Shown piece by piece: positions 2,228-38,040 of a stretch of DNA of 64,000 nucleotides. A program made the position numbers and the translations under genes. The DNA is from Candidatus Bathyarchaeota archaeon (GTDB taxonomy: Archaea; Thermoproteota; Bathyarchaeia; Bathyarchaeales; Bathycorpusculaceae): contig CAVZKL010000009.1 of the NCBI GenBank assembly GCA_963775895.1, positions 40,844 through 104,843 of the forward strand, written 5' to 3'. Each line of letters starts with the position of its first letter. Position 1 is the stretch's first letter. The notes under the pieces were generated by a model. The model saw nothing but the letters and a program-made list of their open reading frames with translations, was not told the origin of the DNA and ran no database searches.

Positions 2228-4225
2228 ATGGGATATGCAGGCAAGTTTCTCGACGTTAATCTATCAACCCAAACCATCAGAGAAACAAAGTTCAGCGACG
2301 AGATACTCGAAGATTACGTTGGCGGCAGAGGCCTTGCCACAAAAATCCTCTGGGACAGAATTGGCAAAAAATGGGACAGAATAGACCCACTCGGACCCGA
2401 CAACCTTCTGTTATTTCTAACGGGACCGTTAACGGGATATTATCCGGGAGGGAGAACATGCGTTTCAGGCAAGTCGCCTCAGAGCAATGGAGTCGTAGGC
2501 TCCACCCTTTCTGGCGAATTCGGCGTCGAATTGAGATGCGCCGGATACGATGGTATAATCGTGAGCGGAGAATCGGCGAAACCCGTTTACTTGTTCATCA
2601 AGGATGCTGACGTTGAACTTCGAGACGCTAGCCACTTCTGGGGTAAAAATGGAAAACAAACAGTAGCAACGTTGACAAAAGAATGCAGAGGGCTTCTGAA
2701 AAAAAAGTATCCTCTGTTTGGCGAATGGAAAGAACCTGCAATGCTCTACACGGGGCCTGCTGGAGAGAAAAAAGTCAGAACTGCTGTTGTCATGACAAAA
2801 TGGTCCCATGCGGCAGGCTACGGGGGCTACGGCGCAGTAATGGGCACAAAAAAACTCAAAGCGGTGGTCGCAAGAGGAACTGGCCCGCTGCCAGAAGCGG
2901 CGGATATCCGCAGAGTTAAGAGATTAATCAGGATCATATGCAAGAACGTGTACAAATCGGAAATGTGGCGAAGATGGGGAACCGCAAGTGCAGGTTACGT
3001 CGTGGGAGCCAAACTGAGTTCAGAACCCGTTCGCAACTGGCAAGAAGAATGGCATGACGAAAAGAGCTTCGGTGTCGACAAGTTCGAAAACCGGCTCTGG
3101 GTCAAACAGTACTGGGGTGATTTCGGCTGTCCAACCACCTGTCTAAAACTCTCAGTCGTCAAGAATGGCAAGTACAAAGGAGCAATCACGGACAACCCGG
3201 ACTACGAGTTGCAGGCATACTTGGGGCCCAACTTGGGGATATTCACGCCTGAAGAGAACGTTTTTCTATCGTCACTGATCGATGATCTAGGACTCTGCGG
3301 CATACAAACAGGAAATGTAATGGCGTTTACTGCCGAACTGTTCCAAAAAGGAATTTTGACCAAAGAGGATCTGGGTGGCTTGGAGCCAAAATGGGGCGAT
3401 ACCGACGCTTTCGCTGAATTGGCAAAGAGAATAGCCACTCGAAAAGGAATAGGGGATGTATTGGCAGAAGGAACTTACCGTGCGGCACTGAAGATCGGAA
3501 AGATGAAGAAAAAGGATCTGCTTGCTTACGCGGTGCAAGCTAAAGGCATAGCAATCGGCGCTCACGGTATACGCAGCGGCAAAGATTATCCTGAAACAAT
3601 CTCATACGCATGCTCGGTGCAATGTGGGGATCACACCTCAACGACAGGACTGCCACTGGACAAGAACAGTGAACTAATCGAGATCTTCAACGATTCAGGA
3701 GTCTACTGCGACTTTAACTGCTTCTCGGTTCCGAAGAACGCAAGATTTGACCTCTACTCAGCCGTAACTGGCCTAAGATTGACTCTGAAAGAGTGGGTGA
3801 AAACCAAGGCGCGGAAGACTCTTCACCTTCAGAGAACCCTTCTTCTTCTAGGCGGTCCGGACACGAAATGGAACCCCACGATAGACGACGATAACCCTCC
3901 AAGGTTCTATGAACCCTTGCCTTCAGGTCCCTACAAAGGAAAAACAGCTGACAAAACCGCGATCGAAGAATACAAAAGCAGGTACTACAAAGCAGTCGAT
4001 TGGGACGAACACGGCATCCCAACTAGAAAAGCTCTAGAGAAACTTGGTTTGAAAGACGTAGATCTAGTACTGGAGAAAGTTCGAAAGAGCAGCCCAGTGA
4101 AGACTGCCCGAATTGAAAAAAGAAGAAAGGAACTGAAACTCAGATTATATGGAGTTCTTTTCCGATTTTCTCGAAAGCGTTTATGGCGAAATCGAGATCC
4201 TTCTTGGTTAACGCTGCGTTCATGA
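2228..4225 (+). CDS. Tungsten-dependent aldehyde:ferredoxin oxidoreductase family protein
   Basis: MGYAGKFLDVNLS start, GGRGLA, KSP, GAVMGTKKLKAV, DDLGLC, WDEHGIPT motifs; 3' end overlaps the convergent kbl gene. Confidence 0.9.
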   Translation: MGYAGKFLDVNLSTQTIRETKFSDEILEDYVGGRGLATKILWDRIGKKWDRIDPLGPDNLLLFLTGPLTGYYPGGRTCVSGKSPQSNGVVGSTLSGEFGVELRCAGYDGIIVSGESAKPVYLFIKDADVELRDASHFWGKNGKQTVATLTKECRGLLKKKYPLFGEWKEPAMLYTGPAGEKKVRTAVVMTKWSHAAGYGGYGAVMGTKKLKAVVARGTGPLPEAADIRRVKRLIRIICKNVYKSEMWRRWGTASAGYVVGAKLSSEPVRNWQEEWHDEKSFGVDKFENRLWVKQYWGDFGCPTTCLKLSVVKNGKYKGAITDNPDYELQAYLGPNLGIFTPEENVFLSSLIDDLGLCGIQTGNVMAFTAELFQKGILTKEDLGGLEPKWGDTDAFAELAKRIATRKGIGDVLAEGTYRAALKIGKMKKKDLLAYAVQAKGIAIGAHGIRSGKDYPETISYACSVQCGDHTSTTGLPLDKNSELIEIFNDSGVYCDFNCFSVPKNARFDLYSAVTGLRLTLKEWVKTKARKTLHLQRTLLLLGGPDTKWNPTIDDDNPPRFYEPLPSGPYKGKTADKTAIEEYKSRYYKAVDWDEHGIPTRKALEKLGLKDVDLVLEKVRKSSPVKTARIEKRRKELKLRLYGVLFRFSRKRLWRNRDPSWLTLRS

Positions 4226-27927: not shown

Positions 27928-28395
27928 CCGTGTACAGTGTAGTTGCCGACTATATAGAAATGATGCCAGAACAAGGTCAGGCGTGCGCGGGCCAGAGACT
28001 TGGAATCCTTTCGGGAACTGAGAAGAAGAGTCGCGGAACTGGCCAACAACTGGAAACGTAGAAACATTTTCGGAGAATTATTCGCTGTTTTTTCAGCCAT
28101 TGTGTACCTCCCCTCCTCGTTTTCAATGTATCATGAATATTAGGATCCAAATATGAGTGGCTTTTTGCTGCACTTTAGGGTTAGAACCTTGACCCAATAA
28201 CATCATGAGGGATCCGACTTGGAAACAACATGTCGAAAGCGTTTACCGCTACGAGTATACGTAGATTCTGTTACAAGAAATTCCTGAGATGGTGGGACAA
28301 GCCATAAGAATCGTAATGACTTAGTTATACCTAAAGAGAAGAATCGTTCATCAAGAAAGACGAATCTTGTTCTTTTGTGAGAAGTAGGTGGTTAC

Positions 28396-28521
28396 ATGCG
28401 GAAGAAAGGAGAAACATCAGTACAAGATCGAACACGGCCTCAACCTCGGAAGAAGAAGGAAAGAGAAAAGCAGCGTAAGGATAAAAAGCTTGCCAGACTT
28501 GAAAGGCAACAGTCCAGATAG
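28396..28521 (+). CDS. Putative 41-aa basic peptide
   Basis: AGGTGG ribosome-binding-like site, then MRKKGETSVQDRTRPQPRKKKEREKQRKDKKLARLERQQSR*. Confidence 0.4.
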   Translation: MRKKGETSVQDRTRPQPRKKKEREKQRKDKKLARLERQQSR

Positions 28522-28612
28522 GCTTAGTTAGTGTACGATGTCTTGGCACGAATGATGCGAAACGCACGCGCGCGCTCCCACAAATGATAGATAGATTTAA
28601 TATATCTTACCC

Positions 28613-29167
28613 GTGCAACAAACACGTATGCCAAAAGGGATCAAAGCAGTTATTCTCACCGCCGATAAGTTTGAGGACATGGAGTTGTTCTTTCCATATT
28701 TCCGCTTACTCGAAGAAGGGGTAGAGGTCGATATAGCTGCGCCCAAGAAGGGACATATCGAAGGAGAGCACGGTTACGGAGTCGAAGTCGATAAGAGCTT
28801 TGACGATATCCAATCGGATGATTATGATCTATTGTTGATTCCTGGCGGGTCGCCAGATGGAGCCCCGTCGGTGGTTAGGAAGGACACCAGGGCTCAAGCC
28901 ATTGCAAAGTCGTTTTTCAACTCCAACAAACCCGTTTCCTCTATCTGTCATGGTCCTTGGCTCTTGGCTTCCTCAGGCCTGGTAAATGGAAGACGCTTGA
29001 CTTCTTACTGGCATGATGGCGTTCCAGAGGACATAAAGAAAGCAGGCGGCATATACGAGGACAAAGAAGTAGTTGTTGACGGTAACCTTGTCACGTCACG
29101 CTATCCTGGGGATTTGCCCGCATTCATGCGAGAAACAATACGGATGGTCAACAGGATCAAAAAATAG
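28613..29167 (+). CDS. PfpI/DJ-1 family protein (intracellular protease/deglycase)
   Basis: FEDMEL, IPGG, ICHGPW, VVVDGNLVTSR motifs. Confidence 0.9.
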   Translation: MQQTRMPKGIKAVILTADKFEDMELFFPYFRLLEEGVEVDIAAPKKGHIEGEHGYGVEVDKSFDDIQSDDYDLLLIPGGSPDGAPSVVRKDTRAQAIAKSFFNSNKPVSSICHGPWLLASSGLVNGRRLTSYWHDGVPEDIKKAGGIYEDKEVVVDGNLVTSRYPGDLPAFMRETIRMVNRIKK

Positions 29168-29200
29168 TCTATGGAAACGTCCGGAACAGAATTTCCATGC

Positions 29201-29236
29201 TTGGTTGATGGATAAAACTTTACCCCAACCAACCAA
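29201..29236 (+). repeat. Palindromic cassette-boundary site, copy 1
   Basis: TTGGTTGATGGATAA-AACT-TTACCCCAACCAACCAA. Confidence 0.8.
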
Positions 29237-29295
29237 AGTCTTGATTTCAGTGTGGAACATAATCTTTAATTAGATATTGTTACGATTTCCTGTGT

Positions 29296-29553
29296 ATGGT
29301 GACTGAGAAGGAGAAGCGTCGCCTGAGACTTTACGGTGTCATCATAGTTTTGGTAAGCATCTGGGCGTTTTTCTTTGGATCAGGAAGAGGAATATTGGCA
29401 CAGTACTCCTATCTGGTTTGGGGGGCACCTATACTGGCTCTTGGAGCCGCAGTCGTCATTATCAGCTATCTCCTGCCTTCAAAAGAGACATCCCGAAAAG
29501 AGAACCTGAAAAACATTCAACCAGCCAAGAACCAAGCACAGCAGGTTGAATGA
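29296..29553 (+). CDS. Small two-TM membrane protein (cassette cargo)
   Basis: 85-aa ORF with two hydrophobic helices, alone between site copies 1 and 2. Confidence 0.7.
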   Translation: MVTEKEKRRLRLYGVIIVLVSIWAFFFGSGRGILAQYSYLVWGAPILALGAAVVIISYLLPSKETSRKENLKNIQPAKNQAQQVE

Positions 29554-29581
29554 AGCCTAAGCCACTTATTAGTAGAAAGAC

Positions 29582-29621
29582 GGTTTGGGTTTGGGGGTAA
29601 ACTTTACCCCAATCAACCAAA
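29582..29621 (+). repeat. Palindromic cassette-boundary site, copy 2 (followed by CGCGCGCGC)
   Basis: GGTTTGGGTTTGGGGGTAA-ACT-TTACCCCAATCAACCAAA. Confidence 0.8.
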
Positions 29622-29700
29622 CGCGCGCGCTGTGGTCAACGTTAGAGTAAAGCTTAATTGAGTGTTTTGTTCTGAGGCAATTAGGTTGGAGGTGGATTTC

Positions 29701-30186
29701 TTGAACCTTTTTGGGCATAAGACAGAACCTAAGGTTCTGTTGACTTATGATGTGATGATGAAATGCAAGTGCGGAGTGTGTCCAGTCCAAGCTAATAGTG
29801 CGTGTGCCAAACCTAAGATAATGGCTAGAGATGAAATGATGAAGAACCCGAGCTCTGAAATAAAGAGGATCATGACCCCTGGAATGATGCAGAACCTGGA
29901 AATGATGAAGAACATGAGCCCTGAAATGATGAAGAACATGTCAAAAGAACAGATGAAGAACTTGAGCGATGAAATGATGAAGAACACGCCAAGAGAACAG
30001 ATTGCGACTATGATGCCTAAAGTGGAAGATATGCCTGGGCCTTATTGTGCTAACGGTGTTGCAGTCTGTAAAGACCTTGATTTCAGCAAGACGTGCATTT
30101 GCAGCGGGTGCCAGGTTTTCAAGGACTTTAGTCTCATGAAAGGTAAACCAATGAGCTACTTCTGTAAAGACGGCAAAGCTATATAA
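29701..30186 (+). CDS. Cys-rich DUF2769-like protein with a Met-rich repeat insert
   Basis: CKCGVCPVQ..C and YCANG..C..CICSGCQV..YFC motifs; EMMKN repeats; GGAGGTGG SD before the TTG at 29701. Confidence 0.7.
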   Translation: MNLFGHKTEPKVLLTYDVMMKCKCGVCPVQANSACAKPKIMARDEMMKNPSSEIKRIMTPGMMQNLEMMKNMSPEMMKNMSKEQMKNLSDEMMKNTPREQIATMMPKVEDMPGPYCANGVAVCKDLDFSKTCICSGCQVFKDFSLMKGKPMSYFCKDGKAI

Positions 30187-30340
30187 TTTTTTTTCCACAC
30201 CTTTCTTCATCCGCATCTCCATCCACGTGGCCCTAGCCGTTTTTTGATTAGATTTCAGTCCTACCAACCAAGAACTAGGTGTAGAGCTTCCAATGGAGCA
30301 AGTTATCTTCCGCTAAAAGTGAAAGACCTTCTTCGCTTGA

Positions 30341-30375
30341 TTGTTGTTGGATAAAACTTCCCCCAAACCAACAAC
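30341..30375 (+). repeat. Palindromic site, copy 3 (upstream of the integrase)
   Basis: TTGTTGTTGGATAA-AACT-TCCCCCAAACCAACAAC. Confidence 0.75.
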
Positions 30376-30425
30376 AGACTTGTAACGAAGAACTTCCCCT
30401 CGCCCCCGCCCGGGTGCAAGCGCAA

Positions 30426-31488
30426 ATGTCTAACAAACATAATGTCGTATTGTATCTAGACAAGAAATTGGTTGAAAAGGCTCGTAGTTTTGGCTTCAAT
30501 CTCAGTAAGACCTTCGAAAATCGCTTGAAACACTTGTTGACGCAATTTTCACAGGTCAATTCTTTGAACAGCACTGAAAACAATAGTAATCTTGGTGATT
30601 GGTGGGCCGAGCCGGACTTGAACCGGCGACCTTTGGCTCGTAAAGCCCCAGAATCACCATCAGAAAATGAAAGTCAAATGCTTGAGCGATTTCATGACTT
30701 TCAAATTGTCGACTTGAGAAGAAACAAAAGAACAGCTTACGAAAAAAGTCTGGTTCACAAAGAGACTACTCAAAGCGGTTGCGAAAAGTCCTAATGACAT
30801 TACGGCAGATAACTTGAGAGGTTACTTGAAAACACTTGAAGGTTACAGTGCATCTTACTACAAAAATGCGTTGACGGCTCTAAAAGTGTTTTTCAGAGAC
30901 TTCTTGAAGATGCCTGAAGTTGTTGAGACTAAGTTTCCACATCAAATCTTCAGACCAAAACAGATTCTGAGCAGAGAACAACTGAGACAGTTTTACTCGT
31001 GTCTTGAAACAGCGAAAGAGAAAGCATTATTCATGTTGTATGCGACGACTGGGTTGAGAAGAGAAGAAATTCTATCACTCAAATCCGAAAACATTGACTT
31101 CAGTAAACGAATGATAATACCAAACAATCATGACGGTGAAACTAAGAAGTCATGGGTCAGCTTTTACAATGAAGAAGCAGAACAAGTACTGCAGGAATAC
31201 ATGAAAACAAAGAAGCCTTCTAGAAGTCAGAGATTATTCCCGATGCAGAGAGACGAAGTTGTTGAGCTATGGAAATCTGCCAGAGAAGAGATCAATATTG
31301 ACATTACGCCACAGAAGCTGCGTCAATGGTTCTGTTCAGAAATGTTAAGGTTAGGCGTATCTGAAACTTATGTTGATGCTTTCTGTGGTAGAGTGCCGAA
31401 GTCAGTCTTAGCCAGACATTATGCCGACTTCTCGCCGCAAAAACTCGAAGAAATCTACGAGAAAGCTAATGTCAAGATTCTATCATAG
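30426..31488 (+). CDS. Tyrosine recombinase/integrase, SSV1-like with the att site inside the gene; RHH-like N-terminus; 1-nt frameshift in an A run at about 30742-30747
   Basis: TTGLRREE (R), GETKK (K), TPQKLRQW (R), GRVPKSVLARHY (Y); removing one A gives a continuous ..TAYEKVWFTKRLLKAVAKSPNDITADNLRGYLK.. Confidence 0.88.
30600..30647 (-). repeat. att site: duplicate of the tRNA-Val 3' half
   Basis: 48-nt match to 37818-37865 with two mismatches (GGGCCGAGCCGG vs GGGCCGGACCGG). Confidence 0.92.
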
Positions 31489-31501
31489 GCGCGCGCGAGG
31501 A

Positions 31502-33182
31502 CTAGGTTTCTGCTTTTCTCAATAGTTCTTCAGCGTTCTTAACTGAGATACGGTAGAAGATCAAGGTTATGACGGCAGCGATTATTGAGCTCAACACAAC
31601 AGCTACATAGAGGTCCATAAAAGGTTGAGCCAGACTTGGGACAAAAGATGAAAGCAGATACGGCGCGAAAGGAACCAGTATTGCTATTGCCACGAGGAAA
31701 CATAAGATCAGGTTGATGAAGCCCTGCAAAGTTCGAATCATTCTCGGTCGAGGAACTTCAGTAAAGTCGGCTCCCTTTATGCCGTTCGACAATGAAATAG
31801 ATCCCAATGTGAACGCCAAGAAGATCGATTCAAGCAGTGCCACAAAAACAGTCCTTAGGGAAGGGTGAAAAGCTATGAATCCAACGGTGCCTGTGACAAC
31901 CAAAATTGCGAGTGAGAAGAAGATTATGAAAAAGTACTTGCTCTTCACAAGACTCTTGGGGGAAATCGGAGATGAGTAGATCCGCCAGATTGTCATTCCT
32001 TCTTCACCTATCATGAACGTACCCAGCATTGTCGCCATAGCAGCGCTCGGAAGGAGGAAAACTAAAGCAACCAAAAACAATGATGCTTCGGTCGGAACTG
32101 GTCTCCCCATTTGGCCTAGAGCCCTGCATGATTGGTGCCAAGATGATTACTATTGGTAGTATGAAAACAACCATCAACTCTCGACGACGAGTAAACGCCT
32201 TCAGATCCTTTCTGATCAGCGCACCCTCTGTCGTAGAAAAACCTAGTCTGCCGAGTAGACCAATTTTTGGTGCGTAAACGCTTCGTGATACCGTGATAGC
32301 AGGAGGCTCGTAAAGTCCGTACCTTCCGTTAAGGAAAGTGGCAAGGTAGAACAAGGCAGCTATGAATCCGAGGGAAAGAACCACGAAAGCGATGCCCTGC
32401 AAAATCAACCCATTTAGGAAACTGTACAGCGTCATACCCAACCACACAAAAGGTATAAACCAAATCGCGCTCTGCGCCGACGCAATAGTCTGCACCAGGT
32501 AAATTCCTCCTGAGCCCGAAACCACGTAGAAATATACGATATAGAATACCAAAAAAAGCAGCAGGGAACCCACGAACCTCACCCAAATCGCGGCTCGACC
32601 AGTGGACTTGTAGATTGCGCCTATGAATCTGACCTGTAGGACTCTGAAAACCTCAGTCACTGCACTGGCCATGAAAGCAGAGGCACATACGGCGAGGATT
32701 GTTGCTGCTGCGGCGGCGACCTGGCCAGTGAACGTGGAAAACAGGACTATGGCTGGTGCGATGAACAGTATTGAAACAAGCGGAATACCAAGAAGGTTGG
32801 TCAGAATGGATGCAAGAGTGTGCTCCCCCCAAGTGATGGGCAGCCAATAAGGCGCCTGAAGGGAAAACTTGGCTCCACTACGCTGAATCTGCTGCAACAT
32901 AGTAAAAACTAGACTATAGATCAGCACCAGGGTCGGTAGACCAAGAAAAAGGCTCAACATGCCTTGGTTAGCCAGAGCAGCAAAATTCGGATCAGTCGCC
33001 GAAGCTGAAACGTAAAACATACCCGCAAGTGCGCCCACCACCAGACCCAGAACCAAAGCCCCTCCGTAGAGCACATAAGTGAAGATTCTGCTCTCGCGAA
33101 ATCTTGTCAGTCTCCTCCCTCTGAGAAATCGACCAGATTTCATGTCTATTCGCATAAGGTGCAGTACGTTCTTCCAGTTCAT
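31502..33182 (-). CDS. ABC-2 type transporter permease (frameshift near 32110)
   Basis: Two consecutive multi-TM ORFs (33182-32004, 32110-31502) downstream of an ABC ATPase; KDLKAFTRRRE and SPIS..SLVKSK motifs. Confidence 0.8.
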
Positions 33183-33958
33183 TTCAACAGTTCCTCTACA
33201 ACTGGTCTTATGTCACCAGTGCCCGTCAGCTTGAGGAAGATGTCTTCCAAGGCGGAATCAGGCAGTTTCGCCATTTCCCTCAACTCATCCATTGTACCTA
33301 GTGCCAAGAGCTTTCCGTGGTACATGATGCCTATGCGGTCGCAGAGCGCTTGGGCTATTTCCAATACGTGTGTAGACATCATCGTGGTCACTCCCTGAGC
33401 TTTCAGCTCATGCAGAAAGTCTTTGACAATTCGAGCGGACCTGGGGTCTAGACCGCTCAATGGTTCATCAAGAATCAACAGTTTCGGTTTGTGCATAAAC
33501 GCCGAAATCAATGCGACCTTCTGTTTCATTCCCTCGGAGTAGCTGCTTATCATGTCGCCTTCTCTGCCCTCTAGCTCAAGGGCCTTCAGATACTCGTTGA
33601 TTCTAGCTTTCTTTGCTTCAGTCTGCAAGCCGTATACGTCGCCTATGAAATCCAAGTATTCGATTCCAGTCAGGAACTCGTAGAGACGTGGAGATTCTGG
33701 AACATAACCGACGAGCCTTTTCACCGCAACTGGATCCCCCTGCACATCTATCCCCAGGACATTAAGCGTGCCCGAGTCAGGCTGAACCAAACCGAGAAGC
33801 ATCTTCATGGTGGTCGATTTACCTGAGCCATTTGGCCCCAACAGACCGAAGATTTCACCCGATCTAATGCTCAAGTCAACGTTGTCAACGGCCGAGATTT
33901 CGCCATAGCGTTTGACGATTCTCTTGATTTCGACCGCAGACGAATAGTCTGTTGCCAT
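33179..33958 (-). CDS. ABC transporter ATP-binding protein
   Basis: GPNGSGKST, YSEGMKQK, LILDEP, STH motifs. Confidence 0.92.
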   Translation of the reverse strand: MATDYSSAVEIKRIVKRYGEISAVDNVDLSIRSGEIFGLLGPNGSGKSTTMKMLLGLVQPDSGTLNVLGIDVQGDPVAVKRLVGYVPESPRLYEFLTGIEYLDFIGDVYGLQTEAKKARINEYLKALELEGREGDMISSYSEGMKQKVALISAFMHKPKLLILDEPLSGLDPRSARIVKDFLHELKAQGVTTMMSTHVLEIAQALCDRIGIMYHGKLLALGTMDELREMAKLPDSALEDIFLKLTGTGDIRPVVEELLK

Positions 33959-34514
33959 CATTAACGCACTCTCGACATTATACAACAACCTATGTATTTG
34001 AAATCGGCTTATGTCTTTCTATTTTCTGTTTGAAGGGTCAATTTCAGCGCGCGCATACCTCAGACGCAAATGCGAACTCTAACACGAACAAAACCGAACC
34101 AACAAAACACCATCACTTTTCAGAGGGTCCCTGGAAGGTTTGTGACGTAGTTTGTGTGTTTGACGTTTGCGCTGTTTGTCAGCGATTTGTGTGTGCGATC
34201 AGTTGTTGGTCGATAGTCTATCGTGCTACTGTATGTGTTGTATCGTACGAAGCGAACAAAGAGTCTGAAGAGAGATGCTTCGTTATTCTATTGTTCGCGC
34301 GCGCTAATCTAATAGAAATCTTAGAAATTCTCTTTTTCTTCTCAGCTTAGAAATTAGAATTTGGAAAGTTACCTGACTTTTTGAACAACATTGAGACAGC
34401 ATTGCAGAATATCAGACATAATCAAGGGTAGTGTTGTCAGGTGGCTACCTCATGAAGAGGTTTGAGAGAACTAAGAGACTGAAGAGAGATAGACTATTGC
34501 ACTATTCTCGCGCG

Positions 34515-34646
34515 CTATTTCTTACCTTTATTATATTCTGCAGGGAGTTCAACGTTCCGCTTCTCTTTCCTTTTCAGTTCCTTTTCTCTCTGCGATTTCA
34601 TGTGGTGTTTATGATCCATAGCTTTCTCTTTCTTGCCTTTGGGCAC
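34515..34646 (-). CDS. Putative 43-aa basic peptide
   Basis: AAGGAGGG SD, then MPKGKKEKAMDHKHHMKSQREKELKRKEKRNVELPAEYNKGKK*; the stop codon overlaps a CGCGCGC run. Confidence 0.45.
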   Translation of the reverse strand: MPKGKKEKAMDHKHHMKSQREKELKRKEKRNVELPAEYNKGKK

Positions 34647-34858
34647 AATTCACCCTCCTTAAGATTAGACTCTGCTCTTACGTCTATTAAAATTGCGCGT
34701 GCTTTGCCGTAGTAGAAACTGATGGATCGATCGATCAATGAGAGCAGTGGTTGAACAATAATATCATTACGGAGAGGTTGCAAAGAACTGAGAGGCTTGA
34801 CAGAGGTTCGTCGTCGTGTACACGAAGTGCACGTAAATGTGAAACGCGCGCGTCCTTG

Positions 34859-35269
34859 TCACGCTGGCACGCGCTTTGGGCCTTCTATACTCTTGAATGC
34901 CAATATGAAGCTTGCTGCGGGCAGAATAAACCCAACCGGCAGTAAAGGGAGAGCTGCAGCTCCCGGTATCAAAAATAGAAAGGAAGGCAGTCCATAAAAT
35001 CCGCCGGCAGCCATTCCCATCAAAATCAATATTCCACCTGGTATCGGTTTTCGATACCAGACGAGTATGCCGCCGACAATCATTAGAAACCCGCCTATGT
35101 AGAGGAAGGGCAAAAAAAGAAAATACGCAACGTTCGTCGCAAACAAAGTGAGAACTCCACTCGTAAGCCCTAACGCGGCTGAAACTTGGCGATAAACTGT
35201 TTTCCTCGCCACTACTCTGGAATCCGACTGCGCGGCTCTGGGGGAATTATTCGATTCGGACAAACTCAA
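34859..35269 (-). CDS. Hypothetical multi-TM membrane protein
   Basis: 136-aa ORF with about four hydrophobic helices. Confidence 0.7.
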   Translation of the reverse strand: MSLSESNNSPRAAQSDSRVVARKTVYRQVSAALGLTSGVLTLFATNVAYFLFLPFLYIGGFLMIVGGILVWYRKPIPGGILILMGMAAGGFYGLPSFLFLIPGAAALPLLPVGFILPAASFILAFKSIEGPKRVPA

Positions 35270-35463
35270 ATCGTCCTAGAGTAGACTGATAAGTCTGTGC
35301 TCTTATTTCTTGCGAATTGATTGACAGGTCTCATAGAATCTGTTCTGCCTAGTCACCTGAACACAGAGCCCCCATGCGTCAAAACCTTAACACTTCGAGT
35401 CAGTCAACTCGCAAAGATAGTTTCTGACGTGTGAAGGGAATTGCGGTTTTTGGTTGAATTTTT

Positions 35464-35497
35464 TGGGTTTGGGTTTGAGATAAGACTTTACCCAACC
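35464..35497 (+). repeat. Palindromic site, copy 4 (right arm cut by CGCGCGCGC)
   Basis: TGGGTTTGGGTTTGAGATAA-GACT-TTACCCAAC. Confidence 0.78.
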
Positions 35498-35543
35498 GCG
35501 CGCGCATTGGTAGAAGACAATTGATCTTGGGGGTTCACGCCTT

Positions 35544-35933
35544 TCATTCAGAACGAGACTGTCTCACATGTCTAATCGCGAGGTACGTCACGACGATACC
35601 GATCAGAGCAAAGAGGATTCCCCAAATGTCAATTGAAGACAACAGGTAGATGTAGTAGATCGATCCTGCAAATATGATCAAACCGTAGAGCATCATCGAA
35701 TAGACAAAGATGTTTTTCTTTTCCCAAAACAAGCTCACCAAGATCACGGCTACGCATGGAAACAACAAACCGGCCGATATGATAGTGATGAGCGTTCCTG
35801 CAGCGTCAATATTCCCTCCTGACAAAACAAGAATGAAGTAAAGAATCAGTGCATCAAGAACTGTGGCTGCCATAGAATAGAACAATGTAGTGAGTCTTGG
35901 CTTCAGTCCATCATCAGAAGACGTGTCTTCCAT
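35544..35933 (-). CDS. Hypothetical four-TM membrane protein (cassette cargo)
   Basis: ATG at 35933; hydrophobic ORF alone between site copies 4 and 5. Confidence 0.72.
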   Translation of the reverse strand: MEDTSSDDGLKPRLTTLFYSMAATVLDALILYFILVLSGGNIDAAGTLITIISAGLLFPCVAVILVSLFWEKKNIFVYSMMLYGLIIFAGSIYYIYLLSSIDIWGILFALIGIVVTYLAIRHVRQSRSE

Positions 35934-35992
35934 ATGAGTGACTTTCTTCGTTCTCGCTCTAAAGTCTTGCGAAGAGCTAAAATTGCGCGTGC

Positions 35993-36017
35993 GATAAAAC
36001 TTTACCCCCAAACCCAA
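35993..36017 (+). repeat. Palindromic site, copy 5 (left arm replaced by GCGCGTGC)
   Basis: GATAA-AACT-TTACCCCCAAACCCAA. Confidence 0.78.
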
Positions 36018-36069
36018 GCCTTGCGATGCAAAAACAAGTATTTTAATACCGAGTTGAACGCTTTGTTGT

Positions 36070-36486
36070 GTGGGGAAAGATTTGTCACAGCAACAACCAC
36101 CGCCACCACCACCGCCAATACCAACAAAGAGAACAGGTTATCCAATTGCCGCAGCCATTCTAGCAATCATTGCTTCTGGTATAGAAGCGCGCTACATCGT
36201 ATTCCTTTTTGTTGGGGCACCTGGTTCGCTTTGGGTGTTAATAGGAATCTTCGCTGTTGTCGTTTTTGCATTTGGTTTGACGGGGGGAATATTCTCGATA
36301 GGACGGAGACACTTTGGGTTGTCAATATTCGGGATGAGTCTTCTAACACTTATGGGATTTTTCGCGCTGTTAATCCCTGCGCTGTTCGGTGAACTGAACA
36401 GCGGATTGTATGTTGGAATACCCATAATCATCCCTTCAATCTTGAGCGTTATCTTCACTGCCATATCCAAGAGTGAGTTCACTTAG
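36070..36486 (+). CDS. Hypothetical membrane protein with a Gln/Pro-rich N-terminus
   Basis: QQQPPPPPPP followed by four TM helices. Confidence 0.72.
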   Translation: MGKDLSQQQPPPPPPPIPTKRTGYPIAAAILAIIASGIEARYIVFLFVGAPGSLWVLIGIFAVVVFAFGLTGGIFSIGRRHFGLSIFGMSLLTLMGFFALLIPALFGELNSGLYVGIPIIIPSILSVIFTAISKSEFT

Positions 36487-36509
36487 GAAGCTTAGCGCGT
36501 ATTCGCGAG

Positions 36510-36991
36510 GTGATGTTGATGAACATTCACTTAAGAGAAGCAAAAGCAACTGACATGCCATTAGTGAAGAAAATCGCTGTTGAAACATCGTGGGAATATA
36601 TCCCTGAAACACAGAAAAAGCTTCTCGATAGAGAGAAATGGAATATGCGTGTGATTGAGTATTATGAGAATGTGTTGAAGGAGGAAAATAGCGAGGTCTT
36701 TATCGCAGAGGATGAACACCATAAGTATGTTGGACACTTGATCGTTGGACAAACCAGAGGCACGATTACTGAGCTGAGCTTCGGCTATATTTACGATATT
36801 TTTATTGAAGAGAAATTCAGAGGCAAGGAAATCGGGAAGATGCTTTGGAAAAGGCGGAAGATTATTGTCGAGAGAAAGGGCATTCCAGAATTGCTCTTTC
36901 GGTATCAGCGACAAATGACTCTGCAATAAAGCTTTACAGCAGAACTGGATACAAACCAGAACGAATAACCATGGCAAAAGAGATAACCTGA
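36510..36991 (+). CDS. GNAT family N-acetyltransferase (frameshift near 36848)
   Basis: GYIYDIFIEEKFRGKEIGK motif A; the C-terminus (..LSVSATNDSAIKLYSRTGY..) continues in another frame to TGA at 36991. Confidence 0.8.
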
Positions 36992-37004
36992 CAGTAGTTT
37001 TGTG

Positions 37005-37040
37005 TGTGTGTTTGGGATAAAACTTTACCCCAACCAACAA
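37005..37040 (+). repeat. Palindromic site, copy 6
   Basis: TGTGTGTTTGGGATAA-AACT-TTACCCCAACCAACAA. Confidence 0.8.
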
Positions 37041-37099
37041 TGCGTGAATGAGACTTCGTTTGTTTTTTCTTATTCCTGCTAGTGAACACCTGCCAACAG

Positions 37100-37517
37100 T
37101 CATCGTTGACTCTCGGAAACCCTGATTTGCCGTAGAATATTCGCAGTGTCGTATTCGACCCATTCTTCAACGATTTTTCCAGCCTTGAACAGAACAATAT
37201 CCATGTAGGATATCGCAATTCGCTTTCCAGTTGCGGGAACGCCCTGATATTCTCCGGTATGAGTGCAATACATTGTTATGCGATTAGCGACCTTGTCATT
37301 TTCAGCGATTTGGTCTTCCACAACTGCTTCAATGTTAGAGAACGCCTTGAGAAACACCATTTCATCTCTTTTTCTCTCCTGAGTTCATCGATTCTCCACC
37401 TCCTCTAGGATGGAGAACGTAGCCGGAGCCTATGAATTTCATTACAGCACCTATATCTCCAGTATTATACGCCTCAAAGTAGCTACGAGCTATCGCCTTG
37501 TTGAGTACAGAAGACAT
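37100..37517 (-). CDS. SnoaL-like ester cyclase family protein (one frameshift)
   Basis: MSSVLNKAIARSYFEAYNTGD ... IAENDKVA..THTGEYQGVPATGK..GKIVEEW. Confidence 0.8.
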
Positions 37518-37561
37518 AATATGCAGACACCACCGTCAATTTGTCAGTATCTGACGGCATT

Positions 37562-37590
37562 TAGATAAGACTTTACCCTCAAGCCCAATC
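37562..37590 (+). repeat. Palindromic site, copy 7 (upstream of Int(N))
   Basis: TAGATAA-GACT-TTACCCTCAAGCCCAATC. Confidence 0.72.
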
Positions 37591-37643
37591 ACCAGACTTA
37601 TAACATAGAACGTCCCCTCGCCCCTGCCCGGGTGCAAGCACAA

Positions 37644-37907
37644 ATGTCAAACAAACACAATCTCGTCTTATATGTTGATCAAGATTTGGTTGAGAAGTCG
37701 CGTAATCTTGGCTTCAATTTGAGTAAGACCTTCGAAAATCACTTGAAACACTTGTTGACGCAGTTTTCACAGGTCAATTCTTTGAACAACACTGAAAACA
37801 ATAGTAATCTTGGTGATTGGTGGGCCGGACCGGACTTGAACCGGCGACCTTTGGCTCGTAAAGCCAATGTCCTAACCAAGCTAGACGACCGGCCCCCAGT
37901 TCACTGA
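37644..37907 (+). CDS. Integrase N-terminal fragment Int(N), RHH-like, reading into the tRNA on the opposite strand
   Basis: Near-identical to the 30426-30647 product (MSNKHNLVLYVDQDLVEK..GDWWAGPDLNRRPLARKA). Confidence 0.8.
   Translation: MSNKHNLVLYVDQDLVEKSRNLGFNLSKTFENHLKHLLTQFSQVNSLNNTENNSNLGDWWAGPDLNRRPLARKANVLTKLDDRPPVH
37818..37895 (-). tRNA. tRNA-Val(TAC)
   Basis: Reverse complement GGGCCGG TC GTCTAGCTTGGTTAGGAC A TTGGC TT-TAC-GA GCCAA AGGTC GCCGG TTCAAGT CCGGT CCGGCCC A CCA folds as a cloverleaf. Confidence 0.95.
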
Positions 37908-38040
37908 TTCTTAAATAATTGCTCTATTAAACTTGACTATCTGCTAACAAGCAAGGAGCGATTATTTCTTATAGTGCCAAGCAACAATTGGTACGATCAA
38001 ATCTGTCAGCAAAAGCACCCATTCACAAAAGTGAAAGTTC

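Follow-up and report, generated by a model that had tools for sequence, protein, structure and literature searches.

Platforms that capture and shuffle gene cassettes are known mainly as integrons, which have also been reported in archaeal MAGs. In an integron the IntI integrase lies beside the array, and cassettes and their sites stand in one orientation downstream of attI/Pc. The folded structure of the attC sites is conserved while their sequence is variable, and they carry R''/R' ends (GTTRRRY). Known tyrosine-recombinase cores have arms of 11-13 bp around a spacer of 6-8 bp. The pdif/dif site, recognised by Xer recombinases, has 28 bp, of which 6 form the spacer between two arms of 11 bp each. 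The initial annotation of a 64-kb stretch of DNA from a Bathyarchaeia MAG (hereafter the window, meaning the whole stretch analysed) proposed an archaeal system of gene-cassette capture and shuffling, with an adjacent integrase acting on attI- and attC-like sites. One part of this proposal stands, as cassette-like modules do differ between genomes at the site in question, which we call S. The tie to the adjacent integrase does not.

We scanned both strands of the window for the S pattern (GATAARACTTTACCC), allowing up to 3 mismatches, with 100 shuffles as a control. Eight matches were found versus 2.67 expected, and none of the shuffles reached eight. Seven of the eight lie on the plus strand between ORFs, in agreement with the initial annotation, and the copy at 29595 is a perfect palindrome (GGGGTAAA-C-TTTACCCC). 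The eighth (36072-36086, minus strand, 3 mismatches) is without the typical S flanks and looks like a chance match. The sites were said to enclose one or two small genes, which is true of five of the six intervals; the exception, 30350-35479, covers 5.1 kb and contains, besides the integrase and a 4-TM gene, an ABC-transporter pair and about 0.8 kb of non-coding sequence. Two copies were also placed about 60-70 nt upstream of integrase N-termini, and indeed the distances from core to ATG are 61 and 65 nt.

Table. Features of the window, in window coordinates.
Feature	Position	Strand	Description
GC-run	28564-28577	.	At the end of the 266-nt stretch 28294-28559
S copy 1	29211-29225	+	Exact core; GT-rich left and AC-rich right flank; between DJ-1/PfpI gene and 2-TM gene
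S copy 2	29595-29609	+	Palindromic variant GGGGTAAACTTTACCCC, 3 mismatches; GC-run 29621-29630 starts 12 nt further on
S copy 3	30350-30364	+	2 mismatches; 61 nt upstream of integrase ATG at 30426
SSV-type tyrosine integrase gene	30426-31488	+	N-terminal part, att, C-terminal part; PF00589 E 6.9e-16, PF16795 E 3.7e-9
att copy 1	30614-30647	+	Exact 34-nt repeat of tRNA-Val 3' half, within integrase ORF
ABC-transporter module	31489-34054	-	ATPase 33179-33988; permease 31502-33182, split into two ORFs
Stretch of ~0.8 kb with no convincing gene	34047-34853	.	GC-runs at 34047, 34295, 34508, 34695 (GCGCGTGC) and 34844
S copy 4	35479-35493	+	Exact; GC-run 35496-35505 directly after; between two minus-strand membrane-protein genes
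S copy 5	35993-36007	+	Exact; GCGCGTGC just before; left edge of module 35990-36487
S copy 6	37016-37030	+	Exact; between 3' ends of GNAT gene and SnoaL-like gene
S copy 7	37564-37578	+	Exact; 65 nt upstream of ATG (37644) of integrase N-terminal fragment
Integrase N-terminal fragment	37644-37817	+	Matches residues 1-58 of the other copy with 84% identity; runs into tRNA-Val
tRNA-Val(TAC), integration target	37818-37895	-	
att copy 2	37832-37865	+	Within tRNA-Val

S has the core GGATAAAACTTTACCCC; its 5' flank is rich in G and free of C, its 3' flank rich in C and free of G. Among the aligned copies of the MAG a word of 15-17 nt is nearly invariant. The inverted arms around a spacer that the initial annotation described are present but have only 6 bp (GG(A)TAAA / TTTACC around 2-3 nt), unlike the longer arms and spacers of known tyrosine-recombinase cores. 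Its statement that GTTRRRY ends are absent is confirmed in the window sequence. The flanks were also described as able to fold into hairpins. Of the six window copies that we folded (29595 left out), two did better than mononucleotide shuffles (z -2.7 and -3.3) and the other four did not (z 0.0, 0.9, -0.6 and 1.2); overall, z fell below -2 in only 7 of 35 copies, with a median dG of -3.5 kcal/mol. The conserved feature of S is therefore its sequence and not a hairpin, the reverse of attC.

Within the 64-kb window S does occur only at this cluster, as first noted, but the genome holds about 36 copies on 11 contigs and both strands. With up to 2 mismatches there are 39 matches in the 1.77-Mb MAG, 31 of them between genes as called by our own crude ORF scorer. 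Beyond this MAG, an exact S 15-mer is found in all 10 further members of the genus that were compared, and in 4 of 30 genomes from outside the genus (0-1 match for a reversed 15-mer control). S is thus genus-wide and multi-locus rather than confined to the tRNA-Val locus. We found no published description of S in the literature searched.

A long, nearly invariant and partly palindromic word is what a dimeric protein might bind, and S could be the putative operator, silencer or insulator of acquired genes for a genus-specific protein, conserved by function and travelling as part of the modules' regulatory region. As read from the sequence, several genes of the window have their TATA-like boxes 30-55 nt downstream of an S copy, and S is retained upstream of the integrase promoter in all four related elements. 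However, at 64 sites, gene starts and gene ends face the 5' side of S 35 and 29 times, respectively, and the 3' side 28 and 36 times; 18 of the 64 lie between two gene ends, and distances from S to gene starts are scattered. The orientation of S is independent of the direction of the flanking genes, and S is not a transcription signal. Furthermore, the exact 15-letter pattern is present in 20 of the 36 aligned copies of the MAG, a uniformity probably greater than that of a typical regulon, yet in close species the copies at orthologous positions decay, with differing substitutions or a deletion. Renewal by copying fits this combination better than site-by-site selection. We consider a protein-binding site unlikely.

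We next turn to the integrase. The island at tRNA-Val includes a 7.2-kb element (~30600-37865) integrated in the manner of SSV, with att inside the integrase ORF, so that integration splits the gene, and a tRNA gene as target, together with the N-terminal remnant of a second integrase, which forms the right end of the element where it runs into tRNA-Val. PF16795, one of the two families matched by the integrase, is named 'Archaeal phage integrase'. The frame appears broken near an A-run at ~30742-30748, as read from the sequence, and the stop codon abuts a GC-run (31489-31498). As in fusellovirus-like elements, an N-terminal part stands by the tRNA and the att repeat forms the boundary. Unlike them, this element carries cassette-like small genes and an ABC transporter, with no replication or virion gene recognised, and at its left end the N- and C-terminal parts are fused, as might be left by tandem integration. 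At the same tRNA-Val, two further members of the genus (G001 and G002) carry neither integrase nor S.

The initial annotation took this integrase to shuffle cassettes at S; the copy that precedes the integrase would serve as attI and the remaining ones as attC. Seven copies in one orientation beside an integrase, S just ahead of each integrase start in the window as in the related elements on L007 and L008, and single-orientation runs elsewhere (6 of 6 sites in both L106 and L117) are all as such a platform predicts. However, the integrase has its own att inside the ORF and targets tRNA-Val, and 3 of the 7 window copies of S lie outside the integrated element. Elsewhere in the MAG we find only one further, broken copy of the integrase (C7) and a weak match, versus about 36 S sites. 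An SSV-type integrase homologue occurs in only 3 of the 173 S-holding sequences of our pooled set, and in G001, which is a single contig, none of the 13 exact S sites lies within 5 kb of a tyrosine-recombinase match. In addition, S is found at many loci in both orientations, has no GTTRRRY ends and does not conserve a structure. An integron run by the adjacent integrase is therefore not supported, and neither is the attI/attC analogy; as an explanation of the arrays it is very improbable. The integrase gene is itself one more S-bounded module. S is its upstream edge in all four related elements, and the integrase modules of the window (two copies), L007 and L008 are similar only from S rightwards; between the two window copies, similarity begins 3 nt before S copy 3. 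That the integrase is itself a module fits the position of S upstream of it as well as attI does.

Comparison of related genomes shows that module content differs between S sites and that homology blocks end at S. Spacing of 172 adjacent S pairs has a median of 905 nt, and 625 proteins encoded next to S fall into 498 clusters (425 singletons), bearing out the first description of sites that separate mostly single-gene, unrelated modules. In one example, window positions 35990-36487 (S plus a 138-aa gene) recur at 57669-58174 of contig C23 with 87% identity. In a second example, a 1.0-kb Fer4 cassette is shared between distant species (G000 C16 39327-40371 and G009 L011 11754-10690; 93.4% over 1065 nt), and the match ends at the outer edge of S on both sides, where the S copies are inverted. 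Identity of the core genes flanking it is 74-80% at the protein level and 70-76% at the DNA level, and the same cassette lies in a third context in G005, again between S sites. A glance at the flanks of this cassette showed no target-site duplication. Two close species, G002 and G008, differ by a swapped segment bounded by two S sites, and a homology block between G008 and G001 stops exactly at the S core. Lastly, a 10-kb island with 8 S sites in G009 fills a spacer that is empty in G000, G004 and G005; its genes are unrelated (cyclophilin, methyltransferase, dockerin, TRAM, GNAT, Fer4 and glyoxalase).

To extend these examples we pooled 28 contigs and 145 loci picked for holding S (173 sequences, 336 S sites). 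Internal block ends fall at S in 124 of 542 cases, versus 14.5 at random positions (maximum 25), and intergenic homology breakpoints in 118 of 439, versus 31.3 at random intergenic positions (maximum 44), a 3.8-fold enrichment; these counts are not independent, because HSPs are reciprocal, populations are related and the loci were chosen for holding S. In 120 junction pairs homology does not extend past S; another 4 pairs are collinear, and 20 leave no room to judge. Because alignments run into the shared S core by construction, the exact crossover point is not readable. Between anchors of at least 85% identity, 87 of 91 gaps with S are broken versus 182 of 244 plain gaps; at 90% or more the figures are 49 of 53 and 152 of 183 (p = 0.12). 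The baseline break rate of plain gaps is thus 75-83%, so the islands are mosaic at ordinary gaps too.

This baseline is what would be expected if S were a REP- or MITE-like selfish or structural repeat that spreads alone between genes, the seams being a by-product of mosaic islands and of BLAST blocks that stop in unconserved spacers or extend into one conserved word. Like REP/BIME elements, S is dispersed, genus-specific, intergenic, imperfectly palindromic, ~35-45 bp long and single or clustered, with copies 55 nt apart on C10 and 11-60 nt apart in the pooled set; its decay at orthologous positions also suits such a repeat. On the other hand, the Y1/RAYT transposase (PF01797) is absent from all 11 genomes of the genus, in a search whose control was positive in 6 of 14 reference genomes. 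The flanks of S are compositional (G-rich, then C-rich) and not complementary, few copies form a stable hairpin, and S coincides with gene-module seams: the Fer4 cassette in its three contexts, the swap with S on both sides and the breakpoint enrichment all argue against spread of S alone. Nor did a non-systematic look reveal a filled/empty pair differing by S alone. We regard a REP-like repeat as possible but improbable.

Alongside S, runs of (GC)n mark some module edges. They bound the ABC-transporter module (31489-31498 and 34047-34054), with which metagenome contig L158 shares 91% identity that ends at 34054. They also divide the gene-poor stretch that follows into pieces of ~150-250 nt, within which 34391-34837 is 88% identical to L004 2395-2838 from another species. 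The 266-nt stretch before the first tabulated run has a 96% identical copy on contig C19, next to an S copy there instead of a GC-run. These runs are 77% intergenic, tend to come after stop codons and sometimes stand exactly at indel junctions; at one locus GCGCGC(G) sits precisely where relatives have a gene, in 2 of 3 indels. As with cyanobacterial HIP1, an 8-bp palindrome is many-fold over-represented in particular lineages; the intergenic and junction-associated placement of the runs sets them apart from it.

How the arrays compare with described cassette systems can now be stated. Like integrons, they consist of mostly single-gene modules of ~0.5-1.4 kb split by short, partly palindromic sites; their pool is very diverse, with many GNATs, glyoxalase-like proteins, methyltransferases and small unknown proteins, and, within the caveats on breakpoints given above, their cassettes are mobile units whose content differs between close relatives. 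Unlike integrons, they have no IntI-type integrase beside them (the adjacent one matches PF00589 and PF16795) and no attI/Pc platform, occupy many loci per genome and hold genes in either direction, which probably carry their own promoters. Site orientation is uniform in the window (7 of 7), but 103 adjacent pairs are direct and 69 inverted in the pooled set (n = 172). The arrays also resemble the pdif (XerC/D) modules of Acinetobacter, bounded by a short conserved site in either orientation, as the Fer4 cassette is by inverted S copies, with no dedicated recombinase gene beside them. However, pdif modules are on plasmids while S arrays are chromosomal, and base counts of the aligned S copies show, by inspection, no 11-6-11 dif layout.

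Where S occurs, that it is independent of transcription direction and that it coincides with homology breakpoints are observed directly, and a cassette-like architecture is supported. We propose that S is a genus-shared junction sequence that lies, within hypervariable islands, between accessory modules of mostly one gene which assort independently, with DNA exchange at or next to S, an explanation about as likely to be right as wrong. New S copies would arise together with the insertion or swapping of a module, either through an enzyme acting in trans or through short-homology recombination within the 15-40 bp common to S copies, and modules would circulate among the species of the genus. More tentatively, and with less confidence, S may be the attC equivalent of an IntI-independent, trans-acting cassette system of the whole genus, in which modules of one S and one gene would be excised, exchanged between species and inserted at many loci by a recombinase not yet linked to the arrays. 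Since a GC-run replaces the relatives' gene in the indels above, (GC)n runs may be a second junction type or an empty docking site. We found neither a recombinase tied to S, most arrays having none nearby, nor a circular intermediate or site-by-site junction at S. Candidate enzymes would be the Xer-like recombinase of the host, another of the tyrosine recombinases, of which each genome has roughly 10, or an integrase of the Cas1 family, the last because 6 of the genus's 16 Cas1 matches have an exact S within 2.5 kb; the Cas1 genes near S are mostly fragments.

Even if S proves REP-like, a 15-mer that is identical throughout a genus whose species share ~70% core-gene nucleotide identity is unusual. 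If instead cassettes are exchanged at many loci with no link to an integrase, an abundant lineage of sediment archaea would have an independent route to gain and shuffle accessory genes, which would explain the gene-by-gene mosaicism of its islands. S, and perhaps the GC-runs, would then serve as a simple sequence tag by which the genus's pool of mobile genes could be harvested from metagenomes.

The motif S, GATAARACTTTACCC, occurs seven times on the + strand of the window between 29211 and 37578, each copy lying between ORFs as the initial annotation had described. Five copies are exact, one has two mismatches (30350) and one has three (29595). With up to three mismatches the window gives 8 matches against 2.67 expected, a number reached in none of 100 shuffles; the eighth match (36072, - strand) lacks the typical flanks, which are G-rich and C-free on the 5' side (GT- or GA-rich) and C-rich and G-free on the 3' side, with GA/CT variants also found. 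The reported placement of S upstream of both integrase N-termini is also correct, the cores stopping 61 nt short of the ATG at 30426 and 65 nt short of that at 37644. Other parts of that description were overstated: the inverted arms are present but short (GG(A)TAAA / TTTACC around 2-3 nt), hairpin folding is significant in two of the six window copies folded but not in the others, and the interval 30350-35479, described as holding one or two small genes, is 5.1 kb long with several.

The motif had not been noticed elsewhere in the window. Beyond the window, we find that S is multi-locus and genus-wide. The window's own MAG (G000; 1.77 Mb, 28 contigs, 88.8% completeness) contains 39 matches at up to two mismatches, on 11 contigs and both strands, and 31 of these lie between called genes. 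Removal of four flank-less matches (three inside called genes) and addition of a palindromic variant gave a set of 36 copies, 20 of which agree exactly with the 15-letter pattern. The exact 15-mer is found in all 10 other genomes of the genus, in up to 28 copies; of 30 genomes from other genera, four have it, in 1-2 copies per genome, and a reversed S control gave 0-1 matches. The core genes of these species share only ~68-77% DNA identity. In the single contig of G001 (2.35 Mb), the 13 exact copies fall into two orientation runs, one of minus copies (2.29 to 0.39 Mb) and one of plus copies (0.86-2.29 Mb) (chance of two or fewer runs on a circle ~0.02, hand estimate), which raised the idea of replichore polarity; the G000 contigs, by contrast, mix S orientations at short range.

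Feature coordinates in and around the element at tRNA-Val
Feature	Coordinates	Strand	Remarks
DJ-1/PfpI, 2-TM protein, weak DUF2769 match			genes left of the element
Integrase	30426-31488		domain matches: PF00589; PF16795 ('Archaeal phage integrase')
GC-runs	31489, 34047, 34295, 34508, 34844, 35496		31489 directly after the integrase stop
ABC ATPase, permease, membrane proteins, GNAT, SnoaL-like protein			other cargo
Second integrase N-terminal fragment	37644-37817		84% identity over 58 residues; runs into tRNA-Val
tRNA-Val(TAC)	37818-37895	-	

The integrase in the window belongs to an ordinary SSV-type integrative element. A 34-nt piece of the tRNA-Val 3' half has an exact second copy within the integrase ORF (30614-30647), and an att within the integrase gene is the SSV-type layout, delimiting an integrated element of ~7.2 kb (30600-37865). 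Since the left integrase copy also has its N-terminal part, we infer a tandem integration in which the older element was largely lost; no third att copy lies within the window. The same tRNA-Val is unoccupied in G001 and G002, with no S and no integrase, and its distance from the glyoxalase gene is 2.7 kb there versus 9.9 kb in the window. The cargo genes are small and mutually unrelated. By sequence reading the integrase frame is broken near the A-run 30742-30748 and, judged by ORF breaks, the permease (32004-32110), GNAT (~36929) and SnoaL-like gene (37360-37362) also look broken; these four interruptions may reflect either decay or errors of assembly. Small gaps are present in the integrase region of contigs from other samples. 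Another dispersed repeat, distinct from S and ~57-78 nt long, lies at 28078-28155, with at least 25 copies at 86-99% identity on many contigs of the MAG and weaker copies in other genus genomes. Between 28000 and 38000 the tRNA alone reaches the Rfam gathering threshold, and no other credible RNA gene appears at E up to 1; S thus matches no known RNA family.

The proposal that this SSV-type integrase runs S is not supported by its distribution: a homologue is present in only 3 of 173 S-holding sequences, and the MAG has only one further degraded copy and a weak match. Genus genomes have ~10 tyrosine-recombinase matches each, and in G001 none lies within 5 kb of the 13 exact copies; we found no recombinase tied to S. 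An attC-like hairpin is ruled out by a median dG of -3.5 kcal/mol, with z < -2 in 7 of 35 copies. Adjacent S copies are direct in 103 pairs and inverted in 69 (p ~0.01 by hand, normal approximation), and same-orientation runs also occur in two loci from elsewhere (6/6 in L106 and 6/6 in L117). The architecture works like that of an integron array or of Acinetobacter pdif modules, but S arrays fail the tests that define an integron (IntI, attC structure and single orientation). The integron reading as first written is unsupported, and we consider an array driven by this integrase very improbable.

Other known functions were also considered. A promoter or terminator is ruled out, as the position and orientation of S are unrelated to gene starts and ends: among 64 sites flanked on either side by called genes, 35 gene starts and 29 gene ends face the 5' side, 28 and 36 the 3' side, and all four gap types occur (18, 18, 17 and 11). 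A protein-binding regulatory or insulating site is a reading that we judge improbable. Copies of S are uniform within and across species and decay at orthologous positions, which argues for renewal by copying and not for selection site by site. A self-spreading REP/MITE-like repeat is also unlikely to be the explanation: S fails the tests that define REP/RAYT, PF01797 being present in none of 11 genomes, and the copies lie at the seams of gene modules.

These seams are seen in individual cases. For instance, 35990-36487 (S plus the gene for a 138-aa membrane protein) recurs on contig C23 with 87% identity, bounded there by S and a GC-run, and the 266 nt at 28294-28559 recur on C19, where they adjoin an S copy. 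Similarity between the two integrase copies begins 3 nt before S, and in two further MAGs the integrase modules can likewise be aligned from S to the right only (4/4). In a second example, G000 and G009, whose core genes share 74-80% protein identity, have in common a 1.0-kb cassette for a 4Fe-4S protein (C16 39327-40371 in G000) at 93.4% identity. On each side the match runs to the outer edge of an S copy and stops there, the two copies being inverted; the flanks are unrelated, and G005 has the same cassette with S copies on either side in a third context. A spacer that stands empty in G000, G004 and G005, and is occupied by other genes in G001, G002 and G008, holds in G009 an island of 10 kb with ~12 unrelated genes and 8 S copies. 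Among G001, G002 and G008, whose shared blocks are 90-95% identical, one replaced segment has S at both borders and another homology block ends exactly at an S core.

Pooled data show the same closeness of homology breakpoints to S. We pooled the 28 contigs and 145 loci, including 80-odd listed metagenome contigs and others holding the 17-mer, for a total of 2.75 Mb and 336 S copies, and scored homology-block ends (blocks of 200 nt or more with at least 80% identity) that fell -40 to +55 nt from a core. Internal block ends lie at S in 124 of 542 cases versus 14.5 at random positions (maximum 25), and intergenic block ends in 118 of 439 versus 31.3 at random intergenic positions (maximum 44), in counts that are non-independent (reciprocal pairs, related populations and loci chosen for holding S). 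Among junction pairs judged where each contig continues for 400 nt or more, homology is undetectable past S in 120, while 4 are collinear and 20 have no room; 73 distinct S copies are involved. By construction, each block runs on into the shared core, and the crossover point is therefore not locatable. For the same reason, namely that block ends on both sides include the core, the idea from nine hand-read cases that the core belongs to the 3'-side module failed in the pooled data. A scan of 1061 GT-tracts, 15 of them followed by S, was uninformative.

A gap-wise comparison is less favorable. Homology is broken at 87 of 91 S gaps versus 182 of 244 plain gaps when anchors share at least 85% identity (odds ratio 7.4), and at 49 of 53 versus 152 of 183 when they share at least 90% (p = 0.12). 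The islands are mosaic almost everywhere, and these gap results weaken the junction reading of S, as does the use of our own codon-usage ORF picker for the gene calls. Adjacent S copies have a median spacing of 905 nt (quartiles 512 and 1415). In 138 loci, 625 proteins lie within 2.5 kb of S and form 498 clusters, of which 425 are singletons; the largest are GNAT (19), methyltransferase (7), Cas1 (7, mostly fragments) and HAD hydrolase (5). The MAG includes strain-variant overlaps of several kb between contigs at 91-98.5% identity (C12/C6, C13/C25, C22/C6, C16/C2 and C10/C5), which suggest two strains binned together, so some 'paralogues' may be alleles. Parts of 29000-38000 occur in 20 sequencing runs, with no single run containing half of its words. 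No circular junction was seen, but the run data are Logan assembled contigs only and are uninformative on this point. S-S 'joints' in four of the runs have a shorter side of only ~20 letters, are other repeat copies of the community, and are evidence neither for nor against site-by-site recombination, and the joints 30533>37818 and 37748>30595 fall ambiguously in the duplicated integrase N-terminal part.

Alternating GC-runs form a second motif of the same islands. Runs of 7-10 nt are found genome-wide and, in the window, over 28564-35505. GCGCGCGC occurs 254 times in the MAG versus ~18 from base composition (hand estimate), and the excess is genus-specific: each of the 10 other genus genomes has 29-464 copies, against 0-14 in most other genera. 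The runs tend to sit 0-20 nt past stop codons; of those of at least 7 nt, 294 of 381 (77%) lie outside called genes, versus a non-genic share of 18.5% of the genome. Ends of repeated segments are near GC-runs in 24 of 180 cases versus 5.9 at random intergenic positions, and pooled homology-block ends in 54 of 542 versus 6.5 expected. When three species are compared at one locus, GCGCGC(G) stands in G001 at precisely the points where its relatives hold 3.7-kb and 1.1-kb inserts; the junctions opposite the G002/G008 gene inserts are at ~3551-3558 and 9583 of locus L027. GC-run gaps are not broken more often than plain gaps (41/64 versus 182/244 and 33/44 versus 152/183), so the claim rests on block-end closeness and three junctions read by eye, and a role of GC-runs in junctions is a lead, short of a finding. 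The non-coding, GC-run-cut segment 34391-34837 is 88% identical to G008 (L004 2395-2838), with neighbouring core genes at ~70%; its summed depth in metagenome contigs is far above that of its flanks, indicating that some of the segment recurs in the community. On C10 (41500-53800) and C7 (31000-36500), a GC-run or S is present at nearly every gene boundary, and modules A, B and C (260-320 nt, 87-99% identical) occur in differing orders on C7, C10, C11 and C22.

Viral sequences and Cas1 genes are also found near S. The exact 16-mer occurs in 26 IMG/VR stretches, but typical flanks occur in only 7 contigs (11 sites), where S adjoins and never enters tightly packed virus-like gene blocks; the other 19 matches look like chance, in unrelated and mostly low-GC contigs. 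In L048, L041 and L046, S and GC-runs lie just outside dense one-strand gene blocks that look like putative virus structural modules. Of 16 Cas1 matches in the genus, six lie no more than 2.5 kb from an exact S copy, and one of the six begins 88 nt downstream of S. Cas1 genes near S (G001:C1 2258379-2259146 (L179), G002:C1 236822-237340, G005:C13, G008:C10, G009:C18 and loci L093, L129, L131, L148, L151 and L164) are mostly fragments or carry stop codons, and Cas1 is at present an unlikely S enzyme because most copies are fragments. No CRISPR-like array lies beside seven Cas1 ORFs in 6 of 138 metagenome loci, nor a repeat array near two intact G002 Cas1 genes within 8.7 and 12.3 kb, and a relation to CRISPR is rejected, the repeat beside an intact Cas1 in G004:C24 being unrelated to S.

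Full-text searches found no account, in main texts, of S or of GC-run punctuation in Bathyarchaeia, and passages of PMC10541130 have nothing on the S motif. Based on the module seams and block ends, we propose, at about an even chance, that S is a junction element of mobile, mostly single-gene modules, where DNA exchange occurs. New S copies would arrive together with modules, which would circulate between species; an enzyme would act in trans, or else short homology would be provided by the 15-40 bp that S copies share. The seam sequence itself is real: it is found across the genus in highly mosaic and cassette-like islands, and its proposed role is testable.
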